DNA from: a virus
Taxonomy: Duplodnaviria > Heunggongvirae > Uroviricota > Caudoviricetes
DNA: 19,350 bases
Direction: 5' to 3' (one strand)
Virus record (IMG/VR): IMGVR_UViG_2778261129_000006
The position numbers and the translations under genes were made by a program. The notes beneath the pieces are model-generated. The model ran no database searches. It had not been told where the DNA came from and saw nothing but the letters and a program-made list of their open reading frames with translations. Below, piece by piece: positions 2,091-17,416 of the stretch; position 1 is the first letter of the stretch; the number at the start of each line of letters is the position of its first letter.

Positions 2091-2108
2091 GCCATTAGGA
2101 GCCATTAG
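2091..2108. promoter_or_regulatory. Direct repeats GCCATTAG x2 (2091-2098, 2101-2108) in the C/cox divergent control region; candidate repressor operator
   Basis: Two 8-bp direct repeats 10 bp centre to centre, about 26 bp upstream of the cox ATG. P2-type repressors bind direct repeats at the early promoter. Confidence 0.3.
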
Positions 2109-2133
2109 AAGCACTAAGGGAGAATCGTAGCAG

Positions 2134-2409
2134 ATGAATAGACAGCTTGTAAGCGTGACTGATGCCGTGCCTTATCAGGAGTTTGCAAAACTCATTGGTA
2201 AAACTCCAAGAGCTGTAAGGGGCATGATTGAGAAAGGGAAATTACCAGTTATTGAGATTACTGACCCTCAGTCAGTATCGGGGCGTGCTGGTGAATATTG
2301 GGTATACCTTCCGGCATGGAATAACGGACTAAAACTGGCTTATGAAAGCCGTCCTAAAGAGATTCGTGACGGCTGGTTGATGTGGTTAGGTCTCGGTGAA
2401 CCACGTTAA
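2134..2409 (+). CDS. cox: Cox excisionase / early-promoter regulator, P2 Cox-like (91 aa)
   Basis: Sequence (PYQEFAKLIGK...GKLPVI...GRAGEYWVYLPAWNNGLKLAYESRPKEIRDGWLMWLGLGEPR) as recalled for P2 Cox. Same 91-aa length. Confidence 0.85.
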   Translation: MNRQLVSVTDAVPYQEFAKLIGKTPRAVRGMIEKGKLPVIEITDPQSVSGRAGEYWVYLPAWNNGLKLAYESRPKEIRDGWLMWLGLGEPR

Positions 2410-2419
2410 GGAGAACCGT

Positions 2420-2590
2420 ATGAATGAGCCTCGTTGTATTGCTCAGTTATTGCGTAACGAAAGCCCTAGGGCGATTGACTTCACCATCACCCACGGTAAG
2501 GGGCGTAAGGGAATCATTATCCGCACCAAAAAACAGAGTCCGTTAAAAAAGGCTCTGACCTTTCTGAAAAGCCGGAGGGTCTGGAAATGA
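2420..2590 (+). CDS. Small hypothetical protein (56 aa) in the P2 orf78 position
   Basis: ATG at 2420 with AAGGAGA SD. Stop overlaps the B start (ATGA at 2587-2590). An in-frame upstream ATG at 2396 would overlap cox. Confidence 0.45.
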   Translation: MNEPRCIAQLLRNESPRAIDFTITHGKGRKGIIIRTKKQSPLKKALTFLKSRRVWK

Positions 2591-3087
2591 CAGTGATGAC
2601 GCTCAATCTCGTTGAAAAACAGCCAGCAGCTATGCGCCGGATAATTGGTAAGCATCTGGCCGTCCCTCGCTGGCAGGAGACATGCGATTATTATAATCAG
2701 ATGATGGAACGCGAACGGCTAACGGTTTGCTTCCATGCGCAGTTAAAACAGCGTCACGCAACGATGCGTTTTGAAGAAATGAACGACGTCGAACGTGAAC
2801 GGCTGGTTTGTGCAATTGATGAATTGCGTGGGGCATTCTCAAAACGCCGTCAGGTTGGCGCAAGTGAGTATGCATATATTAGTTTTTTAACAGTCAGTCA
2901 GCGTCGTACTTTATTTATGCATGCCGGATTGACTGAAAAAGAATTCAACCAGCCATACTGGCGAATTAATGAAGAATCATGTTACTGGCGTGATGCTTTA
3001 TTCCGTGCATTACGTGAATTATTCAGCCTGTTTGAGTATGCACCGACAATTCTGACGTCGGTAAAACCAGAGCAATATCTGCATTAA
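2587..3087 (+). CDS. B: Replication protein B, P2 gpB-like (166 aa)
   Basis: 166 aa, same length as P2 B. Position between cox and A. Start is translationally coupled to the upstream ORF. Confidence 0.75.
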   Translation: MTVMTLNLVEKQPAAMRRIIGKHLAVPRWQETCDYYNQMMERERLTVCFHAQLKQRHATMRFEEMNDVERERLVCAIDELRGAFSKRRQVGASEYAYISFLTVSQRRTLFMHAGLTEKEFNQPYWRINEESCYWRDALFRALRELFSLFEYAPTILTSVKPEQYLH

Positions 3088-3150
3088 ATAATTAACCAGA
3101 GTTTTTAATGCACTTAATCGTGCGGGGCTTCTTTTTGCCTGGAGAAAGTC

Positions 3151-3375
3151 ATGCATACAGTTTCTGAAAACAAGTGCGGTAAATACGCATTACTGCTGCA
3201 ACAGGCCAGAGCCGAAGCACATGCCGACGCAGCGACACGCTTTTCTTCTCATCTTGACGCCATGATTCGCCATATCACAAAGGCGGAGTTATCCCGCGTG
3301 GAGATAGTCGAGCTGCTCAGTCAGGAGTCGGAAAAATTTCACAATATCGGATTGTCTCGCGGGGAGGTGCTTTGA
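3151..3375 (+). CDS. Small hypothetical early protein (74 aa), P2 orf80-like position
   Basis: ATG with GGAGAAAG SD. Stop overlaps the next start (TGATG). Confidence 0.6.
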
Positions 3376-3674
3376 TGTCCTGTTCTCATTCAGTTGTATT
3401 ACTGAATAACGCCTTAAAAATCGCCGTTATGAAAAATGGCGATTTGTCTCTTATTCAACTTTGCCTTGATAAAGAAAAACGCGACATAACTGAATCTGTT
3501 ATCGCGATTTATCAGAATGAATTAAACCTCCTGTCTGATGTGGTCAATTTACTTGTTAAACGCGCTGTATTCCACAAGCAAATTTCCTCAGTGGATGAAC
3601 TGACAAAATTAACGACAGAACTTGCCAATTATTGCGCTGATGTATCCAGGAAACTTAACGATAAAAGGAGCTGA
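3375..3674 (+). CDS. Small hypothetical early protein (99 aa), P2 orf81-like position
   Basis: ATG at 3375 overlapping the upstream TGA, GGGGAGG SD. The ORF-track TTG at 3372 is less likely. Confidence 0.6.
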   Translation: MSCSHSVVLLNNALKIAVMKNGDLSLIQLCLDKEKRDITESVIAIYQNELNLLSDVVNLLVKRAVFHKQISSVDELTKLTTELANYCADVSRKLNDKRS

Positions 3675-3676
3675 TA

Positions 3677-3901
3677 ATGCCGGACAACGTAGATTTTATT
3701 CAGGAACAACAGGCTGAATTACTGGAGCGCCAGATTAACGCGGCAAGGGTAAAACATTGCGGTGCTTCTGCGCTGGTTTGCGAAGAGTGTAACGCGCCAA
3801 TACCTGCTGCCCGTCGTGCGGCTTACCCGTCAGCCACGCGTTGTGTTTCCTGTCAGTCAGTCTTTGAAGCAAAAAACAAACATTACCGGAGAACGGCATG
3901 A
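3677..3901 (+). CDS. TraR/DksA-family C4 zinc-finger protein (74 aa), P2 orf82-like
   Basis: AAGGAG SD. Four cysteines arranged as CxxC...CxxC (CEECNAP...CVSCQS), typical of phage TraR-like zinc fingers. Confidence 0.7.
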   Translation: MPDNVDFIQEQQAELLERQINAARVKHCGASALVCEECNAPIPAARRAAYPSATRCVSCQSVFEAKNKHYRRTA

Positions 3902-4173
3902 GTATTCGTATTGAAATTGGCGAACGTTATGTCGTTACCAGTGACAGCTTTCAGTTTATTCTCCACGAGAAAAAGAGAGCGGAAAGCGGTAAAAACGCCG
4001 GTCAGGAATGGCTGGCGGTGGTTGGTTATTACCCGAAATTAAGCCAGCTCGTTTCCGGCCTGATGCATCACGATATTCTTACCGGAAGCGCAAAGTCTTT
4101 TGCTGATTTAAACGCGCAGGTTGAGCAACTCAGCAAGCGTTGTTCAGAGGCTTTTGGCTCATATGGCCGTTAA
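3898..4173 (+). CDS. Small hypothetical early protein (91 aa), P2 orf83-like position
   Basis: ATGA overlap with the upstream stop. Its stop at 4171-4173 overlaps the A start region. Confidence 0.6.
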   Translation: MSIRIEIGERYVVTSDSFQFILHEKKRAESGKNAGQEWLAVVGYYPKLSQLVSGLMHHDILTGSAKSFADLNAQVEQLSKRCSEAFGSYGR

Positions 4174-6445
4174 AGCCTCCGGGCGTTTTGTCCCTCCGTC
4201 AGCATTTGCCGCAGGCACCGGTAAGACGTTTACCGGTGCTTATGCATGGAACGCGCCACGCGAGGCCGTCGGGCGCGAAAGACCCCTTACACGTGACGAG
4301 ATGCGTCAGGTGCAAGGTGTTTTATCCACGATTAACCGCCTGCCTTACTTTTTGCGCTCGCTGTTTACTTCACACTATGACTACATCCGGCGCAATAAAA
4401 GCCCGGTGCACGGGTTTTATTTCCTCACATCCACTTTTCAGCGTCGTTTATGGCCGCGCATTGAGCGTGTGAATCAGCGCCATGAAATGAACACCGACGC
4501 GTCGTTGCTGTTTCTGGCAGAGCGTGACCACTATGCGCGCCTGCCGGGAATGAATGACAAGGAGCTGAAAAAGTTTGCCGCCCGTATCTCATCGCAGCTT
4601 TTCATGATGTATGAGGAACTCAGCGATGCCTGGGTGGATGCACATGGCGAAAAAGAATCGCTGTTTACGGATGAGGCGCAGGCTCACCTCTATGGTCATG
4701 TTGCTGGCGCTGCACGTGCTTTCAATATTTCCCCGCTTTACTGGAAAAAATACCGTAAAGGACAGATGACCACGAGGCAGGCATATTCTGCCATTGCCCG
4801 TCTGTTTAACGATGAGTGGTGGACTCATCAGCTCAAAGGCCAGCGTATGCGCTGGCATGAGGCGTTACTGATTGCTGTCGGGGAGGTCAATAAAGACCGT
4901 TCTCCTTATGCCAGTAAACATGCCATTCGTGATGTGCGTGCACGCCGCCAGGCAAATCTGGAATTTCTTAAATCGTGTGATCTCGAAAACAGGGAAACCG
5001 GCGAGCGCATCGACCTTATCAGTAAGGTGATGGGCAGTATTTCTAATCCTGAAATTCGCCGGATGGAGCTGATGAACACCATTGCCGGTATTGAGCGTTA
5101 CGCCGCAGCAGAGGGTGATGTGGGGATGTTTATCACGCTGACCGCGCCGTCAAAGTATCACCCGACACGTCAGGTTGGAAAAGGCGAAAGTAAAACCGTC
5201 CAGCTAAATCACGGCTGGAACGATGAGGCATTTAATCCAAAGGATGCGCAGCGTTATCTCTGCCGTATCTGGAGCCTGATGCGCACGGCATTCAAGGATA
5301 ATGATTTACAGGTCTACGGTTTGCGTGTCGTCGAGCCACATCACGACGGAACGCCGCACTGGCATATGATGCTTTTTTGTAATCCGCGCCAGCGTAACCA
5401 GATTATCGAAATCATGCGTCGCTATGCGCTCAAAGAGGATGGCGACGAAAGAGGAGCCGCGCGAAACCGTTTTCAGGCAAAACACCTTAATCGGGGCGGT
5501 GCTGCGGGGTATATCGCGAAATACATCTCAAAAAACATCGACGGCTATGCACTGGATGGTCAGCTCGATAACGATACCGGCAGACCTCTGAAAGATACTG
5601 CCGCGGCTGTTACTGCATGGGCGTCAACGTGGCGCATCCCGCAATTTAAAACGGTTGGTCTGCCGACAATGGGGGCTTACCGTGAACTACGCAAATTGCC
5701 TCGCGGCGTCAGCATTGCTGATGAGTTTGACGAACGCGTCGAGGCTGCACGCGCTGCCGCAGACAGTGGCGATTTTGCGTTGTATATCAGTGCGCAGGGT
5801 GGGGCAAATGTTCCGCGCGATTGCCAGACTGTCAGAGTCGCCCGTAGCCCGTCGGATGAAGTTAACGAGTACGAGGAAGAAGTCGAGAGAGTGGTCGGCA
5901 TTTACGCGCCGCATCTCGGCGCGCGTCATATTCATATCACCAGAACGACGGACTGGCGCATTGTGCCGAAAGTTCCGGTCGTGGAGCCTTTGACTTTAAA
6001 AAGCGGCATCGCCGCGCCTCGGAGTCCTGTCAATAACTGTGGAAAGCTCACCGGTGGTGATACTTCGTTATCGGCTCCCACACCGACTGAGCATGCTGCA
6101 GCGGTGTTAAATTTTATAGATGAAGGGATTCTAAGTTGGACCGAGCCAGGCATTATGAAGGTACTTAGAGACTTATTGAGTAATGAACTGAAATGCAGTA
6201 ATCGTTCACAGCAGAGCTTTACTCCTTTCAATGGTCGAAGCTACTTTCCTGCCCCATCCGCCCGGTTGACAAGGCAGGAGAGAAAGACTATCCCGAAAAT
6301 TAAGGTTCTTCTTGCACAAAGTGACATTCAGGCTAGTTATTGGGAGCTTGAAGCTCTCGCTCGCGGAGCTGTTTTGGATTTTGGGCATAAGCGTTTTAAA
6401 TTTGATACCGATATCGACTTTTTTGACAGACAGCGTGAGTGGTAG
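4163..6445 (+). CDS. A: Replication initiation endonuclease, P2 gpA-like rolling-circle initiator (760 aa)
   Basis: Start at ATG 4163 (MAVKASGRFVPP), not the ORF-track ATG at 4121. HUH-type motifs HWHMMLF and AAGYIAKYISK. Length close to P2 A. This is not a P4 alpha primase-helicase. Confidence 0.9.
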   Translation: MAVKASGRFVPPSAFAAGTGKTFTGAYAWNAPREAVGRERPLTRDEMRQVQGVLSTINRLPYFLRSLFTSHYDYIRRNKSPVHGFYFLTSTFQRRLWPRIERVNQRHEMNTDASLLFLAERDHYARLPGMNDKELKKFAARISSQLFMMYEELSDAWVDAHGEKESLFTDEAQAHLYGHVAGAARAFNISPLYWKKYRKGQMTTRQAYSAIARLFNDEWWTHQLKGQRMRWHEALLIAVGEVNKDRSPYASKHAIRDVRARRQANLEFLKSCDLENRETGERIDLISKVMGSISNPEIRRMELMNTIAGIERYAAAEGDVGMFITLTAPSKYHPTRQVGKGESKTVQLNHGWNDEAFNPKDAQRYLCRIWSLMRTAFKDNDLQVYGLRVVEPHHDGTPHWHMMLFCNPRQRNQIIEIMRRYALKEDGDERGAARNRFQAKHLNRGGAAGYIAKYISKNIDGYALDGQLDNDTGRPLKDTAAAVTAWASTWRIPQFKTVGLPTMGAYRELRKLPRGVSIADEFDERVEAARAAADSGDFALYISAQGGANVPRDCQTVRVARSPSDEVNEYEEEVERVVGIYAPHLGARHIHITRTTDWRIVPKVPVVEPLTLKSGIAAPRSPVNNCGKLTGGDTSLSAPTPTEHAAAVLNFIDEGILSWTEPGIMKVLRDLLSNELKCSNRSQQSFTPFNGRSYFPAPSARLTRQERKTIPKIKVLLAQSDIQASYWELEALARGAVLDFGHKRFKFDTDIDFFDRQREW

Positions 6446-6533
6446 TTGAAAAAACGGTTGAACGGGGTAACAATATGTTATTGTTGAGGAATTGTTTGTT
6501 ATGGTTTAATTTTTATACACGGCAGAAAAGCAT

Positions 6534-7757
6534 ATGAGCATGGTTGAATGGATAAGCCACGAGAAAAAAGATAGCCTGATACTATTTGTACATGGATTAA
6601 ATGGTGGTTTGGAAACATGGAACTTTAATAAAGAAATTTCATTTCCAAAACTATTAGCAGAAGATGAAGATATTAGCAACGTATTTGATATTGCATGTTT
6701 CAATTATTTTACTAAATTCACACAAACGTATGCTAAAACGTCAGGATTCTTGGCTCGTATTTTCTTTAAGAAAAATAAGTTAGAGAGAAATTTACCAACT
6801 GATGAAATAGCTGAGTTATTGTATACTGAGATTAGAGTAACACTAAGTGATTACTCTCGAATTATAATAATCGCCCATAGTATGGGGGGGTTAATATCAA
6901 AAAATCTAATTCTAAAAAAAGTTGAGCATGAGGAACAATCTAATATAATTGGATTCATTTCGTTAGCAGTCCCTCACTTTGGTGCTAAATTAGCGAATAT
7001 AACTTCAATGGTATCTTCAAATGCTCAGTTAGTAGATCTTGGATTGTTAAGTGAAGCGACTGATACATTGAATAGGCGCTGGATAAATTGTAGCAAAAAA
7101 CTTCCTATCACTAGATATGTTTATGGATCTCATGACACTATAGTCGATAAAAAAAGCGCATTACCGATGGATAGTGAACGACATAACTCAATTGCAGTTA
7201 ATGAAGGGCATAGCTCAATTTGCAAGCCCGAAAATAGCTCGTCTACAGTGTTTGTTGCGGTAAAGCAATTTATTCAGCAGATAAATTTAGAAGCACCCAA
7301 GAAGATTTGCGTTGAGCGTTTTTCTGATGATAAACAATATGATAATGAGTATTTCGTCTTAAAAATGATTGTCGCAGATATACATCAGGATATCGCTCTG
7401 CATGCAAAGGAATATTATTATAATGCTGAGCTTGCGAGAAATATTTTTACGAGTGATTACGATAGAAAACAACTTGGTCATTTGTATTCTAAAATAAGGG
7501 AGATTTACCAGGAAGAGTATGAGCAATACATTGCAAATTCAATTTCCCCAGATAAATTTATTGCTGCTGTTCATAGACGAATAACCCAGGAGGATAAGTC
7601 GTCGTTAGATTCTCTTATAAAAAGTTTGGAAACGATACATAAGAAAGGAATGTTGCATCAACTGGCTAACAAAAATGACAGGGATATTGTCTGGTCATCT
7701 GAAACCAGCGTAGAAACTTTGGAGCAATTACGGCGAGGTAATCATGAAGAAAAATAA
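6534..7757 (+). CDS. Alpha/beta-hydrolase-fold effector protein with a helical C-terminal domain (407 aa); Lamassu LmuA-like / ABC-3C effector candidate
   Basis: Oxyanion-hole motif LILFVHGLNGG. Nucleophile elbow IIIAHSMGGL (GxSxG). Downstream acid and His candidates (GSHDTIVD, NEGHSSI). AT-rich. First gene of the cargo operon. Confidence 0.75.
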   Translation: MSMVEWISHEKKDSLILFVHGLNGGLETWNFNKEISFPKLLAEDEDISNVFDIACFNYFTKFTQTYAKTSGFLARIFFKKNKLERNLPTDEIAELLYTEIRVTLSDYSRIIIIAHSMGGLISKNLILKKVEHEEQSNIIGFISLAVPHFGAKLANITSMVSSNAQLVDLGLLSEATDTLNRRWINCSKKLPITRYVYGSHDTIVDKKSALPMDSERHNSIAVNEGHSSICKPENSSSTVFVAVKQFIQQINLEAPKKICVERFSDDKQYDNEYFVLKMIVADIHQDIALHAKEYYYNAELARNIFTSDYDRKQLGHLYSKIREIYQEEYEQYIANSISPDKFIAAVHRRITQEDKSSLDSLIKSLETIHKKGMLHQLANKNDRDIVWSSETSVETLEQLRRGNHEEK

Positions 7758-7896
7758 CTTGCCGTATATACCTCTTGATGAAGAGTATAGTTTGAATTTT
7801 GCTATGCTTGCCATTGCTATATCTATATTATCTCATAGCAAAAAAGGAGTGTTGTCATTAGATATTAATAAAATACAAATTTTTATGTATCTGTGA
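7744..7896 (+). CDS. Small ORF (50 aa); possibly the N-terminal part of a frameshifted middle-component gene
   Basis: ATG at 7744 with GAGGT SD 5 nt upstream. Overlaps the hydrolase gene end by 14 nt. Its TGA (7894-7896) overlaps the GTG start of the next ORF. Confidence 0.35.
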   Translation: MKKNNLPYIPLDEEYSLNFAMLAIAISILSHSKKGVLSLDINKIQIFMYL

Positions 7897-8258
7897 TAAA
7901 AAATCCATCAAAAATTGATTGTGCTCTTACAGTTTCGGGGAAAAAGCCTGCTTGTGTCGAGTCCCAGTTAACTTATACAATAAAGAGTTTTTCATCAAAT
8001 GTAGATATCTTATTCGACAATTCCAAAGTGAAATATCTTATAAAAATTATGTCATTGCGGGGATTGCTCTCAGCTGAGAAAAAAAATAATGAGAGTGTTA
8101 AATTATTTTTATCTGAAAAAGGTAAGGAATTTGCTAGCTCATTGACTGATGGATATTTTAAAGAAATAAAACGACTAGCCGAAGCATTGTTACCGCTACA
8201 AGCATTGCCTACCTCTAAGTTAAACTCTGTTATAAACAAAGTCTTCAAGGAGAAATGA
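7893..8258 (+). CDS. Small middle-component protein (121 aa from GTG); LmuC-like candidate
   Basis: Frame opens at 7872; first start is GTG at 7893 with no clear SD. Stop overlaps the ATPase start (ATGA at 8255-8258). A small coupled gene between effector and ATPase. Confidence 0.5.
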   Translation: MIKNPSKIDCALTVSGKKPACVESQLTYTIKSFSSNVDILFDNSKVKYLIKIMSLRGLLSAEKKNNESVKLFLSEKGKEFASSLTDGYFKEIKRLAEALLPLQALPTSKLNSVINKVFKEK

Positions 8259-10225
8259 TGAAATCATATCTCAATATCAATAGTTTGATTCTTGTTGGCG
8301 TTCGTAAAAACTACGTCACTACTTTTTATAAAGGTCTCAATGTTATCTACGGAGACTCTGACACAGGTAAGTCAAGTATTCTGGAGTTTATTAATTATCT
8401 TTTAGGTGCTAGTTCTATAGATTTAGCAGATGAAATAAAAACATCAGTAAACTATGCTGCTCTTGAAGTAGTGATCAATGATACTGTATTCACAATCGTA
8501 AGAGATATCTATGATCATAAAAAATCAATAGAAGTTTATCGTTGTAAGTTTGATGATTTACATAAACACTTTCCGAAAAAATACGCTCCTAATTATAGCC
8601 CCTTATCAAATGTTGATGGCGTTTTTTCAGAGTTTTTACTTGATAGTCTTAATTTTCCAAAAATTGAAATTAAGGTGTCTCCTTCTAAAGCACATTCACA
8701 GATGCGCAGGTTAAGCTTTAGAAATATATATAAATTTGTTTATGTAAGTCAGGATGATATTGGTAGTAAATCATTCTTACGATTGGAGGATTGGTCCCGT
8801 TACGCATTTACGAAAGAAGTTTTTAAATACATGTTCAATGTGTTGGATGAAAGCATCGCCAGACTCCAAGGTGAAATATCTGCAAAAAGTAGTTTAGTAA
8901 CGGAACTAAATAAGAAGTATCAGATAATATCTGAATTTCTTCGCGATACAGACTATGAAACAATTGAATCAATTGATGATGAGATTAATAGGATAGATCT
9001 TATTTTAGAAGAACTTGTTGCAGGTTTGTCTGCTCTCGATAAAAATATGAAAGCGGATTCCATGCAGTATACAGAATTGAAAGATGCCCACAATTTTATT
9101 TCGCTTAAATACAAGGAGTGCATATTAAATATTAGCACGCTTGAGGATAAGATTGATAAATATTCGCGGTTAAAAAATGACTATGATAATGATATTGAAA
9201 AACTCAAAGCGATTAAAACAGCAAATTCTCGCATTGGTGTATTGGATAAGGAAGTATTTTCCTGTCCGATCTGTGATAGCCACATTAAAATAGATGATTC
9301 CGATTTTCCATTTGAAATTTCATCAGAAAAAGATCTTAATGAAGAGTTGAATTCACTTAGTCGACGTAGACGAAATATTAATGACATGATCTCAGAAATG
9401 TCATTTAAATTAAAAAAAGAATCTGGTTATAAAAAAGAATTAGATGAACAACTTGACGAGTTGAGAGAGTTAATTGACGAAGAAAGCCAGTCAATGATTA
9501 CACCATTCTTGACTCAGAGAGATTTTTATATTAAAGAGATATCAAAAAACGAGAAGGTTAGGGAGCAGTTAGTAAAAGATTTGAAGGTTAGAAACCAGCA
9601 AGAGGAACTGCTTGAAAAGCATCAGGTACTGATAAAAGATATTGAAACATTAACTGAACGCTTGGATGCGTTAAAGAAAAACGCACCTAGTATGGAAGGC
9701 ATTTTACAAGGTTTAGGTGATAGATTTAGTCAGTATTTGAAGGGTATTAATATCAAAAACAGAACGGGGATAAAAATCTCTGAAAGATATTACACCCCTG
9801 TTATAAGAGGAAAGGAATATTTTAAAATAACGTCCGGAGGTTTGAGAACTATTTCTTCTATTGGGTATCTTTTGTCTATTCTTGATTATGCAATAGACCA
9901 TAATGTTAACCATCCTTTACTTTTGATATTTGATACGGTTGGTAAATATTTAGGGAAACAGACCAAGGAAAAATACTCAAAAGAAACTCTTGCAGTCGAG
10001 GATGACCTTGAGGGGATGTCAGACCCGATGAAGTATCAAAATATTTATGAGCAACTATTGAATACAGTTCAAAAAGCAGAAAGAAAAAATGTTCCGTGCC
10101 AGATTATATTAGTTGATAATGATTTGCCTAATTCGTTTTCTACTGGTGAACTTTCGAATATTATCGCTCATTATAGCTCGGTTGGTGAGGATGGTTTGCC
10201 TTTAGGTTTAATTGATGACCTTTAA
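8255..10225 (+). CDS. SMC/Rad50-like ABC ATPase with coiled-coil insert (656 aa); Lamassu LmuB-like candidate
   Basis: Degenerate Walker A YGDSDTGKSS (8348-8377). Long heptad-rich coiled-coil region with a central CPIC motif (9263-9274). ABC signature-like TSGGLR (9829-9846). Walker B-like LLLIFD followed by T, not E. CAAGGAGA SD. Confidence 0.8.
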   Translation: MMKSYLNINSLILVGVRKNYVTTFYKGLNVIYGDSDTGKSSILEFINYLLGASSIDLADEIKTSVNYAALEVVINDTVFTIVRDIYDHKKSIEVYRCKFDDLHKHFPKKYAPNYSPLSNVDGVFSEFLLDSLNFPKIEIKVSPSKAHSQMRRLSFRNIYKFVYVSQDDIGSKSFLRLEDWSRYAFTKEVFKYMFNVLDESIARLQGEISAKSSLVTELNKKYQIISEFLRDTDYETIESIDDEINRIDLILEELVAGLSALDKNMKADSMQYTELKDAHNFISLKYKECILNISTLEDKIDKYSRLKNDYDNDIEKLKAIKTANSRIGVLDKEVFSCPICDSHIKIDDSDFPFEISSEKDLNEELNSLSRRRRNINDMISEMSFKLKKESGYKKELDEQLDELRELIDEESQSMITPFLTQRDFYIKEISKNEKVREQLVKDLKVRNQQEELLEKHQVLIKDIETLTERLDALKKNAPSMEGILQGLGDRFSQYLKGINIKNRTGIKISERYYTPVIRGKEYFKITSGGLRTISSIGYLLSILDYAIDHNVNHPLLLIFDTVGKYLGKQTKEKYSKETLAVEDDLEGMSDPMKYQNIYEQLLNTVQKAERKNVPCQIILVDNDLPNSFSTGELSNIIAHYSSVGEDGLPLGLIDDL

Positions 10226-10353
10226 TACTATACATGCATTTTTTTGAATTAGATTGCATGTGGATAATGAGTCTATTTAGTGAAGGGAAGGTTTTGTGTG
10301 ACGTGACTTTCGATAAAATTCAACCGCATTAAAACCGCCCCATGAAGCGGGCG

Positions 10354-10540: not shown

Positions 10541-11515
10541 TCAGCCGTTGTCAGTGTCCAGTGAGTAGTTTTTAAAGCGGATGACCTCCTGACCGAGCCA
10601 GCCGTTTATCTCACGGATCCTGTCCTGTAACGGGATAAGCTCATTGCGGACAAAGACCTTTGCCACTTTCTCAATATCACCCAGCGACCCGACGTTCTCC
10701 GGCTTGCCGCCCATCAACTGAAAGGGGATGCGGTGCGCGTCCAGCAGGTCTGCGGCACTGGCTTTTTTGATATTAAAAAAATCGTCCTTCGTCGCCACTT
10801 CACTGAGCGGGATAATTTTAATGCCGTCGGCTTTTCCCTGTGGGGCATAGAGAAACAGGTTTTTAAAGTTGTTGCGGCCTTTCGACTTCACCATGTTTTC
10901 GCGAAGCATTTCGATATCGTTGCGATCCTGCACGGCATCAGTGACGTACATGATGTATCCGGCATGTGCGCCGTTTTCGTAATACTTGCGGCGGAACAGC
11001 GTGGCCGACTCATTCAGCCAGGCAGAGTTAAGGGCGCTGAGATATTCCGGCAGGCCGTACAGCTCCTGATTAATATCGGGCTCCAGCAGGTGAAACACGG
11101 AACCGGGCGCGAAGGCTGTCGGTTCGTTGAAGGACGGCACCCACCAGTAAACATCCTCCTCCACGCCACGGCGGGTATATTTTGCCGGTGAGGTTTCCAG
11201 TCTGATGACCTTACCGGTGGTGCTGTAACGCTTTTCCAGAAACGCATTACCGAACACCAGAAAATCCAGCACAAAGCGGCTGAAATCCTGCTGGGAAAGT
11301 CGCCGAAAATCGCCAGTGTGCATCAGTTCGGTCTGTCGGAAGAAACCCGGAAAGACGGTAAGAAAATTGATTATCCGGCGCGTCCTCTGCTCGGCTTTAC
11401 CGGTGAGGATGTGCAGATGATTGAAGAGATTATCCTGGCTCACCTTGAGCGTTAGTTTTATCCAGGCAGAGGCTGATGCGCAATTAAACATTGAGCGGCC
11501 ATGCTGGTCGCTCAA
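10541..11515 (-). CDS. Q: Capsid portal protein, P2 gpQ-like; probably N-terminally truncated
   Basis: C-terminal region recalled as P2 portal. The longest frame starts only at TTG 11515 (first ATG at 11491), with an in-frame stop just upstream. 324 aa against about 344 aa recalled for P2 Q. Confidence 0.7.
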   Translation of the reverse strand: MSDQHGRSMFNCASASAWIKLTLKVSQDNLFNHLHILTGKAEQRTRRIINFLTVFPGFFRQTELMHTGDFRRLSQQDFSRFVLDFLVFGNAFLEKRYSTTGKVIRLETSPAKYTRRGVEEDVYWWVPSFNEPTAFAPGSVFHLLEPDINQELYGLPEYLSALNSAWLNESATLFRRKYYENGAHAGYIMYVTDAVQDRNDIEMLRENMVKSKGRNNFKNLFLYAPQGKADGIKIIPLSEVATKDDFFNIKKASAADLLDAHRIPFQLMGGKPENVGSLGDIEKVAKVFVRNELIPLQDRIREINGWLGQEVIRFKNYSLDTDNG

Positions 11516-11526
11516 TGTTTAGAGGC

Positions 11527-12312
11527 TTATGAGTGATTTTTATTTGATGCTTTGTATTCTACAACCTTCTTATTGGCGTAAAGGAATTTTGTATATGACA
11601 GGAATATAACCAGACCTGAAATGAAATAGATGAGGGATATTATTAATAATGCTTTTTTTTGGCTGTTATTATCTTTAATTTCCTGACTTAACCATTCCGA
11701 GTCCTCCTCGTTTAGCTGTAAGAGCTTATTGCAGGCGATCTCAGGAAGTGTGTCTTTTATAAATATGTTTCGTAGCCTCTTGCAATCGGCAAGGCTATAA
11801 GTTTTATTGAATTCAACTGTTTTATTGTTGAAGGATAAAAGAACTTTGTCACTATAAACATAGTACATCATATTTTTATATGGTATGCCTATGGCATCTC
11901 TTACTATAGCGGATTGTTTGTTGTGTATATAACATGCGAAGAGAATATAAATAATGCTGGACAGAATTACAATTATTGTTTTAATTATGTGTGGTGGTTT
12001 TGTTATGTCACCCCAGAAGCGAGTAAGAAAAAAATACGATGTTTTTAGTTTTCCATCAATCAGCCCCTGCTGTATCATTCTCACATCTTCGATGCCTGAT
12101 ACATTGATTCCGTTAATTATTTTAAATAGTTGAATGTCGCGCCATTTTTTGTCGAGCATTTTTAACTTTCTGTCTGAATACTCAAAATTGAAATGATGTG
12201 CAATAAACCTCATAAGATTACTTTTACCAAAGGTAATAAATGTTAATGCTATTAATAAAAATAGATACAAAGAGATAAACCACCACGCATTAGTCACATT
12301 ATCACTGAACAT
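11527..12312 (-). CDS. Membrane protein with three predicted TM segments (261 aa); unknown function; AT-rich cargo
   Basis: ATG at 12312 with GAGGAG SD 6 nt upstream. Hydrophobic helices at the N-terminus (WWFISLYLFLLIALTFITF), middle (IIKTIIVILSSIIYILFACYI) and C-terminus (ALLIISLIYFISGLVIFLSY). Base composition unlike the flanking phage DNA. Confidence 0.7.
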   Translation of the reverse strand: MFSDNVTNAWWFISLYLFLLIALTFITFGKSNLMRFIAHHFNFEYSDRKLKMLDKKWRDIQLFKIINGINVSGIEDVRMIQQGLIDGKLKTSYFFLTRFWGDITKPPHIIKTIIVILSSIIYILFACYIHNKQSAIVRDAIGIPYKNMMYYVYSDKVLLSFNNKTVEFNKTYSLADCKRLRNIFIKDTLPEIACNKLLQLNEEDSEWLSQEIKDNNSQKKALLIISLIYFISGLVIFLSYTKFLYANKKVVEYKASNKNHS

Positions 12313-12395
12313 TACGCTCTCCTCGAATGTTGTATGGTCGTTCTACAAATGAATCCAGATAGCATAACTTTTATATATTGTGCAATCTCACACGC

Positions 12396-12830
12396 ATGAA
12401 CACTCTCGCAAATATTCAGGAACTCGCGCGCGCACTGCGCAACATGATTCGTACCGGCCTTGTCGTCGAAACCAACCTTAAAGCCGGTCGCTGCCGTGTG
12501 CAGACCGGTGGCATGTGCACTGACTGGCTTCAGTGGCTGACCCATCGTGCCGGACGTTCGCGCACATGGTGGGCACCTTCCGTGGGGGAACAGGTGCTGA
12601 TTCTGGCTGTGGGCGGTGAACTCGACACGGCGTTCGTTCTGCCGGGGATTTATTCCGGCGATAACCCCGCGCCGTCTGCGTCGGCGGATGCCCTGCATAT
12701 CCGTTTCCCTGACGGGGCGGTGATTGAGTATGAACCCGAAACCAGTGCACTCACGGTAAGAGGAGCTTCTCTGGTGGTGTCTACGTGCTGTTGTCAGCCA
12801 GGTGGATTTGTTAATGGAACGCTTTGTTGA
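12396..12830 (+). pseudogene. V: Baseplate spike gpV fragment: first ~115 codons V-like, then unrelated sequence
   Basis: MNTLANIQELARALRNMIRTG...EYEPETSALTV as recalled for the P2 V N-terminus. The ORF then reads RGASLVVSTCCCQPGGFVNGTLC and stops; P2 V is about 211 aa. Confidence 0.7.
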
Positions 12831-13012
12831 CTTAAATCGTCGTTTGATGAAGTTGGAGACTTCAGAATAAACAAGCCTTAATGAGTATCTGCTTAAAATA
12901 GTGTTATCTACAGATCAAACTTTAGTTGATACGAGTCACTGTCCTCCCCGTAACAACTGGAGTTAAAAGATGTGATGGCATATAAATATAACATCAAATA
13001 ATTATTTTTTTT

Positions 13013-13081: not shown

Positions 13082-14196
13082 TTATATTTTTTCGCAAAAA
13101 GAAGAATAATCTCCACAGATTAAGCAACTGACAAGCTCTCTTTGTGCGGGATATATTTGGGACTCATTTACAAGCCCTGTATATGGTAAGAGTGATTTAT
13201 GTATCAAGTTAAAAACGTGAGACTTCTCATTAGTTGTTAAACTTTTTTTGGATAATATGGATGCCAAGTGCTCAACGCAAATAACCAGCCATGCATTAAA
13301 CATTTTTACTATTTCTGCTTCATTTTTATTGCTTGATAAGATATAAATCAAACCTGTTTGTAATACCAAGGCTCTTTGTTTAATGGAGAAAGATGTTTTA
13401 GATAGATGTGGTTCTTCATGGCGATTCAGAGAGTAGTAGCCCTTTCTTGCCAGTATAGATATCGTATTAGCTACAGTTAGGCTCTGGCAAGAAAAAAGCA
13501 TATCCTCATAGACTGAAATTGATGGGTTAAATAAGATGTTGTTATTGATTAGCAACTCTCTTTTAAAGAACTTGAAGATTTTTAATGATCTAAAAAGATG
13601 GTTTTTTATAATATCTGCTTTATTCGTGTCTGCCTTAAATGGGCGTACAGGAACCCCTCTCCCTGTAGAGGAAACCTGCTTGAAATATACAATGTCACTA
13701 TTGTTTTTATAAGCCATCTGAATACCATCGGACAGTAAGTCAGAGTGAATGGAATCATCAGAGTCTAAGAAAAACACATAGCGACCTTTTGCGGATTTTA
13801 TTCCCTCATTTCGCGGCGCTGATGCATTCCCTGAACCAACTGCTCTACGGATAATACGATAATTTATTTCTCTCGAAATGTTATATTCAATGGCGGCAAT
13901 GCTCCTGTCAGTGGAACAGTCATCAATGAAAATAACTTCAAAACAATTTTTATCTATAGTCTGATTGTTTAAAGATTTAATGCATTCGAGAATAAGGGTT
14001 TCTCGGTTGTGAACCGGAATAACAACTGAGACATCAAAGGGATAAATAGAATTAATTTCATTAATTACCGTTGTGATTTTTAGAAGAGAAGTATGCAGGG
14101 CTGTTGTTAAAACAGCAGAAGATGAAATGTTTTCTTTTTTAGTGTTGCCTTTTATAGTATAATAAGGGCAATTATTTCGTAGTACAAAATCCACAT

Positions 14197-14200
<4 letters not shown>
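13082..14200 (-). CDS. Family-2 (GT-A fold) glycosyltransferase (372 aa from GTG)
   Basis: VSVVIPVHNRE motif, FIDDCSTD and FLDSDD (DxD) motifs. AT-rich. The only start in frame is GTG at 14200, overlapping the stop of the upstream small ORF, with no obvious SD. Confidence 0.8.
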
Positions 14201-16636: not shown

Positions 16637-17416
16637 ATGGCAATGCCGCGCAAACTCAAGTTAATGAACGTCTTTCTGAACGGCTACAGCTATCAGGGCG
16701 TTGCAAAGTCCGTCACGCTGCCAAAACTGACCCGTAAGCTCGAAAACTATCGCGGTGCGGGGATGAACGGCAGCGCACCGGTAGACCTCGGCCTTGATGA
16801 CGATGCGCTGTCAATGGAGTGGTCGCTCGGTGGATTCCCGGATTCGGTTATCTGGGAGCTTTACGCCGCAACCGGTGTGGATGCCGTGCCGATTCGTTTT
16901 GCAGGCTCTTACCAGCGCGACGATACAGGCGTAACGGCAAAGTGGTTACACACCAAAGACCCGAAACCGCAAAAGCAGAAGGTAAAACTGAAACGCAAAA
17001 AGAAAGAGAAACACCTGCGCGCACTGGAGCACCCGAACGCGAAACCGGTCAGGCAGAAGAAAGCGCCTAAAGTACCGGAAGCGCGTGAAGGTGAATACAT
17101 GGCCGGTGAGGCTGACAACGTTTTTGCCCTGACCACGGTATATGCCACGAAAGCGCAGGCCATGCGCGCCGCTCAGGCGAAGTGGGATAAGCTGCAACGG
17201 GGCGTTGCGGAGTTCTCCATCAGTCTGGCTACCGGTCGTGCTGATATTTACACGGAAACACCGGTTAAAGTGTCAGGCTTTAAGCGCGTCATAGACGAGC
17301 AGGACTGGACAATCACTAAGGTGACACATTTTCTGAATAATAGCGGCTTCACGACGTCCCTGGAGCTTGAGGTCAGGCTTTCTGATGTGGAGTACGAAAC
17401 AGAAGATGATGAGTGA
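16637..17416 (+). CDS. Chimeric ORF: tail tube gpFII N-terminus (~97 aa) fused in frame to a Lys-rich segment and the gpD C-terminus (259 aa)
   Basis: N-terminus MAMPRKLKLMNVFLNGYSYQGV...SYQRDDTG recalled as P2 FII (172 aa in P2). C-terminus ...WTITKVTHFLNNSGFTTSLELEVRLSDVEYETEDDE resembles the late-control D protein (yegZ-like). E, T and U are absent. Confidence 0.65.
   Translation: MAMPRKLKLMNVFLNGYSYQGVAKSVTLPKLTRKLENYRGAGMNGSAPVDLGLDDDALSMEWSLGGFPDSVIWELYAATGVDAVPIRFAGSYQRDDTGVTAKWLHTKDPKPQKQKVKLKRKKKEKHLRALEHPNAKPVRQKKAPKVPEAREGEYMAGEADNVFALTTVYATKAQAMRAAQAKWDKLQRGVAEFSISLATGRADIYTETPVKVSGFKRVIDEQDWTITKVTHFLNNSGFTTSLELEVRLSDVEYETEDDE

Follow-up and report, generated by a model that had tools for sequence, protein, structure and literature searches.

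A lipase-type Lamassu effector with a predicted Ser-Asp-His active site in a P2-like prophage remnant of Escherichia coli B

Does a Lamassu effector that resembles lipases retain the residues of a working enzyme, and what would such an enzyme do to the cell that carries it? The question is raised by a stretch of 19,350 nucleotides (nt) of Caudoviricetes DNA (IMG/VR record IMGVR_UViG_2778261129_000006; 'the window' refers to this whole stretch). Its plus-strand open reading frame (ORF) at 6534–7757, lmuA, encodes an effector of 407 amino acids (aa) which combines an N-terminal α/β hydrolase domain with a C-terminal CTD8 domain. A sequence-only reading of the window had recognized lipase/esterase-type motifs in this ORF and proposed a hydrolytic effector distinct in mechanism from the nuclease-type Lamassu effectors. 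We find it likely that the ORF is the LmuA of a short, three-gene (type II) Lamassu of the lipase subtype, carried as cargo by a P2-like prophage and acting by the mechanism proposed below.

The catalytic site of LmuA

The ORF is recovered by the PADLOC profile LmuA PDLC03851 at 1.3e-108, and both of its halves are recognized by Pfam. The lipase/esterase-like effector domain occupies aa 1–255 (6534–7298, plus strand, as for all features of the operon), and CTD8 (PF20284, 9.2e-36) occupies aa 265–389 (7326–7700). In the N-terminal half, four hydrolase families are matched: DUF676 (2.8e-9), PGAP1 (3.1e-7), Abhydrolase_1 (1.9e-6) and LCAT (7e-5). Since all four exceed the Pfam gathering cut-offs, the set of motifs described below goes beyond chance. 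A specific model for LmuA or LmuC was not found in NCBIfam. The annotations of REL606 and of another B-type genome contain the same protein, WP_000063128.1.

Four motifs typical of lipases and esterases lie in canonical order within this single ORF, as had been read from the sequence. The first, VHGLNGG (aa 19–25, nt 6588–6608), contains the HG oxyanion-hole motif H20-G21 (6591–6596). The nucleophile elbow AHSMGG (aa 114–119, 6873–6890) presents Ser116 (6879–6881). GSHDTIVD (aa 198–205, nt 7125–7148) supplies Asp201 (7134–7136), the candidate catalytic acid, and NEGHSSI (aa 223–229, nt 7200–7220) supplies His226 (7209–7211), the candidate catalytic base. Between the elbow and the acid, a further motif, P147-H148-x-G150 (6972–6983), follows strand β6 and is common to BlEst2, RavL and PGAP1. 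The span first proposed for the hydrolase, 6576–7230, covers this catalytic core but falls short of the whole domain, which extends over about 6534–7298.

Conservation was examined at two depths. A search of a large protein collection returned 372 full-length relatives with the hydrolase and CTD8 architecture. In an alignment of 37 of these relatives, which reaches down to 42% identity, the residues H20, G21, H115-S116-M117-G118-G119, D201 and H226 are invariant. With the hydrolase domain as sole query, a search without word index yielded 2,261 representatives at E ≤ 1e-3, and 130 domain-covering representatives, all at ≤50% identity, were compared. H20, G21, S116, G118 and H226 are each present in 130 of 130, as is P147; G150 is kept in 129. 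The position of D201 is an aspartate in 129 representatives and a glutamate in one.

The complete Ser-Asp-His triad that had been postulated thus withstands both comparisons, with S116, D201 and H226 invariant or nearly so. The assignment of the acid to GSHDTIVD holds for D201 but not for the second aspartate of the motif: the position of D205 is occupied by P, D, S, N, T or K among the 130 representatives. As D205 varies in both alignments and D201 is conserved, D205 was ruled out as the catalytic acid. In the predicted active site of LmuA, Ser116 is therefore the nucleophile, Asp201 the acid and His226 the base, accompanied by the H20-G21 oxyanion-hole motif; across the family, these residues show no variation or hardly any.

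Between the B and O157 alleles, LmuA differs by 11 substitutions, none of which affects a catalytic residue. The corresponding pN/pS values, 0.13 for lmuA and 0.11 for lmuB, indicate purifying selection. These figures bear on a reading that makes the hydrolase-like domain a scaffold without catalytic activity and attributes killing to something else. Pseudo-enzymes do exist among α/β-fold proteins, and the non-catalytic NDRG family is among the Foldseek matches of LmuA, but no direct evidence favours such a role here. We regard it as highly improbable given the invariant or nearly invariant catalytic positions of the 130 representatives, the pN/pS of 0.13 and the loss of both toxicity and defence in a catalytic-His mutant of an E. 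coli lipase-type Lamassu (PMC12663957).

Fold, lipase relatives and candidate substrate

An AlphaFold2 model of LmuA was built from the 37-sequence alignment. The hydrolase core is modelled with a predicted local distance difference test score (pLDDT) of 85–96 and its strands succeed each other in canonical order: residues 14–20 lead to H20-G21, 109–115 to S116, 192–198 to D201 and 219–222 to H226. The HG motif is thereby placed after β3, the elbow after β5, the acid after β7 and the histidine after β8, which is the arrangement of α/β hydrolases. In the model, the N-terminal 255 residues of LmuA fold as an α/β hydrolase.

The resemblance to lipases, proposed from the motifs, is borne out by this strand order and by profile comparisons. 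A profile of the LmuA family matches RavL at 4e-6, with both the Ser and the Asp aligned, and BlEst2 at 8.5e-5. Matches to LPLA2 and PGAP1 are weak and involve the elbow together with the P-H-x-G motif that follows β6. The elbow of LmuA aligns with AHSRGG, YSKGG, AHSMG and HSMGG of RavL, BlEst2, LPLA2 and PGAP1, respectively, and P147-H148-x-G150 has its aligned counterparts in 'TPHHGS' of BlEst2 and in 'APH' of PGAP1. Both an A-H-S-M-G elbow and a P-H-x-G motif are typical of bacterial family I lipases.

BlEst2 and RavL, both lipases, provide the best structural match and the sole significant sequence matches in the PDB; full-length LmuA, compared by sequence with solved structures, gave nothing but a weak BlEst2 match. 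The closest relatives in sequence and structure are lipases and lipid deacylases: BlEst2 (6wpx), Legionella RavL (7x2p), LPLA2 (4x90) and PGAP1/Bst1 (8k9r) share 16–18% identity with the LmuA hydrolase. Unlike LmuA, these are secreted, effector or endoplasmic reticulum enzymes which have no CTD8 and stand outside SMC-controlled immune complexes.

This family resemblance makes a membrane lipid the most likely substrate of LmuA. No paper that we found reports a substrate of any lipase-type LmuA. The triad could also be catalytic on something other than a membrane lipid, if LmuA were a thioesterase, a deacylase, a peptidase or another ester or amide hydrolase; the target, soluble or in the envelope, might then be an acyl carrier, a lipoprotein, or a modification of peptidoglycan or another part of the envelope. 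We consider this unlikely. All the sequence families matched by LmuA act on lipids (DUF676 'putative serine esterase', PGAP1 glycosylphosphatidylinositol inositol deacylase, LCAT/LPLA2), and the structural comparison singles out the two lipases named above. Were LmuA to hydrolyze some other essential ester, a thioester or an amide in place of membrane phospholipid, it would exemplify a chemistry so far undescribed for abortive infection.

The hydrolase domain is also found outside Lamassu. With its triad intact, it forms the N-terminus of STAND NTPases of 900–1500 aa (NACHT, NB-ARC and nSTAND5), some of which end in a C-terminal HD domain; the fused domains are 33–44% identical to the LmuA hydrolase. 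These proteins look like single-chain immune sensors that reuse the Lamassu lipase effector. Their sensor and switch would be the STAND ATPase within one polypeptide, in contrast to the separate LmuB/LmuC complex of Lamassu. Fusion to NACHT, NB-ARC and nSTAND5 modules, which are immune switches that oligomerize, suggests a portable effector which is switched on by oligomerization. A further parallel is CapV of CBASS, a patatin-like phospholipase and abortive-infection effector thought to degrade membrane lipid. It differs from LmuA by its patatin fold, its Ser-Asp dyad and its cyclic-dinucleotide activator, and the parallel is one of analogy only.

The Lamassu operon and its proposed mechanism

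The attribution of the ORF to Lamassu is confirmed by its neighbours, as the genes run in the order lmuA-lmuC-lmuB. The last of them, lmuB (8255–10225), encodes a 656-aa SMC/Rad50-like ABC ATPase recovered over residues 2–656 by PADLOC LmuB PDLC03862 (1.2e-233). It carries a Walker A motif GDSDTGKS (8351–8374, with K39), a central Zn hook CPIC (9263–9274), a signature TSGG (9830–9841) and a Walker B motif LLIFDT (9920–9937); the latter conforms to hhhhD[Q/S/T/E], the Walker B pattern reported for short Lamassu. The middle gene, lmuC (7744–8258), encodes the ABC-3C middle component MC4 and is split in the window into pieces at 7744–7896 (50 aa) and 7893–8258 (121 aa). Remote relatives from Methylomonas and Pseudomonas aeruginosa retain the operon, with a hydrolase-CTD8 protein, an MC4 protein of 169–190 aa and a LmuB of 662–668 aa. 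In RefSeq, the Lamassu proteins of the window are named 'ABC-three component system protein / middle component 4'. The ABC-3C systems (CTD8 PF20284, MC4 PF20290) are the same system under an earlier name, with no difference in classification. A scan for promoters and terminators returned just a weak promoter-like site at 6446–6474, upstream of lmuA, and sites were fewer than in shuffled sequence, which makes the scan uninformative.

The distinction drawn by the sequence-only reading between hydrolase and nuclease effectors holds, but it is already in the literature. As early as 2022, hydrolases were listed among the effectors when the Lamassu family was expanded. The Lamassu structure papers, which also set out the CTD and MC typing, describe α/β hydrolase or lipase LmuA proteins with CTD8 or CTD9 that are predicted to oligomerize. 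DefenseFinder lists a subtype Lamassu_Lipase with LmuA_Lipase (~413 aa, versus 407 aa for LmuA of the window), LmuC (183 aa) and LmuB (627 aa), sizes that agree with those of the window. Lastly, Lamassu Ec-Lipase of E. coli confers protection against Lambda-vir, and its over-expression is toxic (Haudiquet et al., PNAS 2025, PMC12663957). Its LmuA mutant H215A loses both defence and toxicity, and a Walker A mutant of its LmuB loses defence only (PMC12663957). The lipase-type effector class is thus catalogued and partly tested, and it is not new. Ec-Lipase resembles the system of the window as a short E. coli Lamassu with a lipase-type LmuA, a LmuC and a Zn-hook (CxxC) LmuB; it differs in that lmuC is frameshifted in the window.

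The nuclease-type systems DdmABC/Lamassu Vc-Cap4 and Salmonella LmuACB share the overall design: an SMC-like LmuB, a small LmuC and a LmuA made of an N-terminal effector and a C-terminal docking domain. They are activated by release and oligomerization of the effector, with abortive infection as the outcome. Their effector, however, is a Cap4-type DNA nuclease and the LmuA of the window a predicted serine hydrolase, and the Vc LmuB has no Zn hook, unlike the LmuB studied here. No sequence similarity between the window proteins and the solved nuclease-type Lamassu chains was detected by phmmer.

On the model of other Lamassu systems and of an E. coli lipase-type system, a LmuB dimer with LmuC would keep the LmuA monomer inactive in the resting state by holding its C-terminal domain. 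LmuB would sense DNA ends or phage replication intermediates. Once released, LmuA would oligomerize through CTD8, presumed from structures of other Lamassu subtypes to be a docking and oligomerization module, and the hydrolase would be switched on. It would then cleave an ester in some component that the cell cannot do without, most likely a membrane phospholipid, and the infected cell would die before phage release, in an abortive infection.

Several observations weigh against this account of the locus. Two segments of LmuA, aa 64–86 and 150–172, are poorly modelled (pLDDT below 50); these insertions likely form a lid. The CTD8 domain is also poorly modelled (pLDDT 36–69). No solved structure of any detectable LmuB relative was found by sequence search, and LmuA has only its weak BlEst2 match, which is why homology to the Lamassu complexes solved by cryo-electron microscopy cannot be demonstrated directly. 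Furthermore, the experimental data come from a homologue of unspecified closeness to the system of the window. Ec-Lipase is numbered with H215 in LmuA and K42 in LmuB; the corresponding residues are H226 and K39 in the window, and another E. coli relative has H225 and K38. None of 268 collected LmuA homologues has its catalytic histidine at 215, and the strain or accession of Ec-Lipase was not found in the text of the paper, the preprint or the supplements. Identity of the two systems is not established since the residue numbers do not fit. Lastly, lmuC is frameshifted in the window.

This last point deserves closer attention. A two-base-pair (TG) duplication at TGTG (7892–7895) shifts the frame of lmuC, which closes after 50 codons, and the remainder starts at an overlapping GTG. 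The PADLOC LmuC profile (3.1e-34) is covered at positions 48–166 of 168 only, and MC4 (PF20290) scores 6e-19, as against 4.5e-27 for the intact form. That form, known from other B-type genomes, has 170 aa with MC4 over residues 29–160. It is present in 95 of the 96 other E. coli carriers, including B-type genomes such as ATCC 11303 and the O157:H7 genome examined, and an intact lmuC also occurs in the distant homologous operons. REL606 is the only carrier that matches the stretch at 100%.

We lean towards the view that the locus of this strain is a decaying relic in which the intact triad reflects recent descent and not present function; this would be compatible with the proposed mechanism at the level of the family. 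The TG duplication interrupts LmuC after residue 50, inside MC4, and is shared by a single one of the 96 other carriers, REL606. Deletion of lmuC abolishes defence in the tested Lamassu systems, and decay is visible elsewhere in the window, where the portal gene is cut short and a segment of ~5 kb with baseplate and tail-fibre genes, known from other B-type genomes, is gone. In contrast, lmuA and lmuB are full-length, with the same accessions as in B-type genomes whose lmuC is intact. In addition, the two lmuC pieces overlap as GTGA, the stop of the first piece and the GTG start of the second. Both LmuC halves could therefore arise by coupled translation and might still assemble. Because lmuC is split and its deletion abolishes defence in tested systems, the duplication probably disables the sensor and sequestration module and leaves the Lamassu inactive in this strain with an intact effector gene. 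On paper, the LmuA encoded in the window would remain catalytically competent despite the likely inactive system. The locus is probably a Lamassu by descent and not a working system in this strain.

Genomic setting and biological meaning

The window comes from the E. coli B lineage and is what is left of a decayed P2-like prophage. It contains an integrase gene (584–1597) and a P2-like gpA replication gene (4121–6445, Pfam Phage_GPA), which flanks the Lamassu cassette on one side. The cassette (6446–10300, plus strand), an island of 32–35% GC, stands out in the composition profile, with a GC fraction of 0.31–0.35 inside and 0.51–0.57 in the flanks. On its other side lies the truncated portal gene (10541–11515, minus strand, Pfam Phage_portal), and further on, in this order, tail sheath, a tube/gpD remnant and the chromosomal gene yegQ. 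Lamassu systems have been reported at prophage hotspots of such kind, and here the gpA/portal hotspot holds Lamassu as its cargo.

The cassette matches REL606 at 99.9%. Of 5,426 complete E. coli genomes, 96 have the lipase-type Lamassu of the window; 84 of these carry an allele of 97.3%, mostly O157:H7 among the matches listed. The one O157:H7 genome examined has the cassette at the same position of a P2-like prophage, with gpA on one side and an undamaged portal gene on the other. When 50,697 phage records were queried by megablast and tblastn, the cassette was found in no sequenced phage; it was seen in chromosomes and prophages only. A literature search on Lamassu of BL21 or REL606 brought up nothing relevant, nor did one on a phospholipase substrate of Lamassu.

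A second Lamassu of the lipase type, diverged from the first, occurs in 13 E. coli genomes, with ~64% nucleotide identity and a LmuA of 402 aa that has S116 and H225. In strain 219 (NZ_CP020514.1) it spans 2712–6399 of the extracted locus and adjoins ArdC, MobC and a type IV coupling protein. In this one genome examined, the second Lamassu sits on an integrative mobilizable (ICE-like) element and not on a P2 prophage.

Other parts of the remnant also show insertion and loss. Beside the truncated portal gene lies a second low-GC (~33%) island (11527–12698, minus strand) with ORFs of 261 and 128 aa, the larger of which is the hypothetical WP_000490543.1 in related genomes. Pfam gave no significant match for either ORF (one sub-threshold DUF6535 match for the 261-aa ORF) and PADLOC none; the island may be another cargo insertion. 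At about 12764–13000, ~5 kb carried by other B-type genomes is absent (compared with positions 2100–7400 of the B-type locus). According to the B-type annotation, this segment holds the final part of baseplate V, followed by W, J and I, and the tail-fibre gene entirely or for the most part. The REL606 alignment of the window ends at 12764. Given this end and the absent ~5 kb, the prophage remnant of the window is more degraded than that of REL606 or ATCC 11303. A family-2 glycosyltransferase gene (13082–14200, minus strand) lies between the tail-fibre and sheath genes of the late region and could be a lysogenic-conversion gene for surface modification. The ORF at 16637–17416 joins the N-terminus of the tail tube (Phage_tube 1–95) to the C-terminus of gpD (Phage_GPD 214–304), which points to an internal deletion that removed the intervening genes.

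What, then, does the locus add? The Lamassu of the window would kill by a serine hydrolase and not by a nuclease, and its predicted catalytic residues can be named as S116, D201 and H226. The conceptual gain is small since the lipase-type LmuA class was already recognized and partly tested. For the study of what a lipase-type LmuA cleaves and how oligomerization activates the hydrolase, the frameshifted lmuC of the REL606-type B lineage and the intact copy of other B-type genomes and O157:H7 offer a convenient natural pair.
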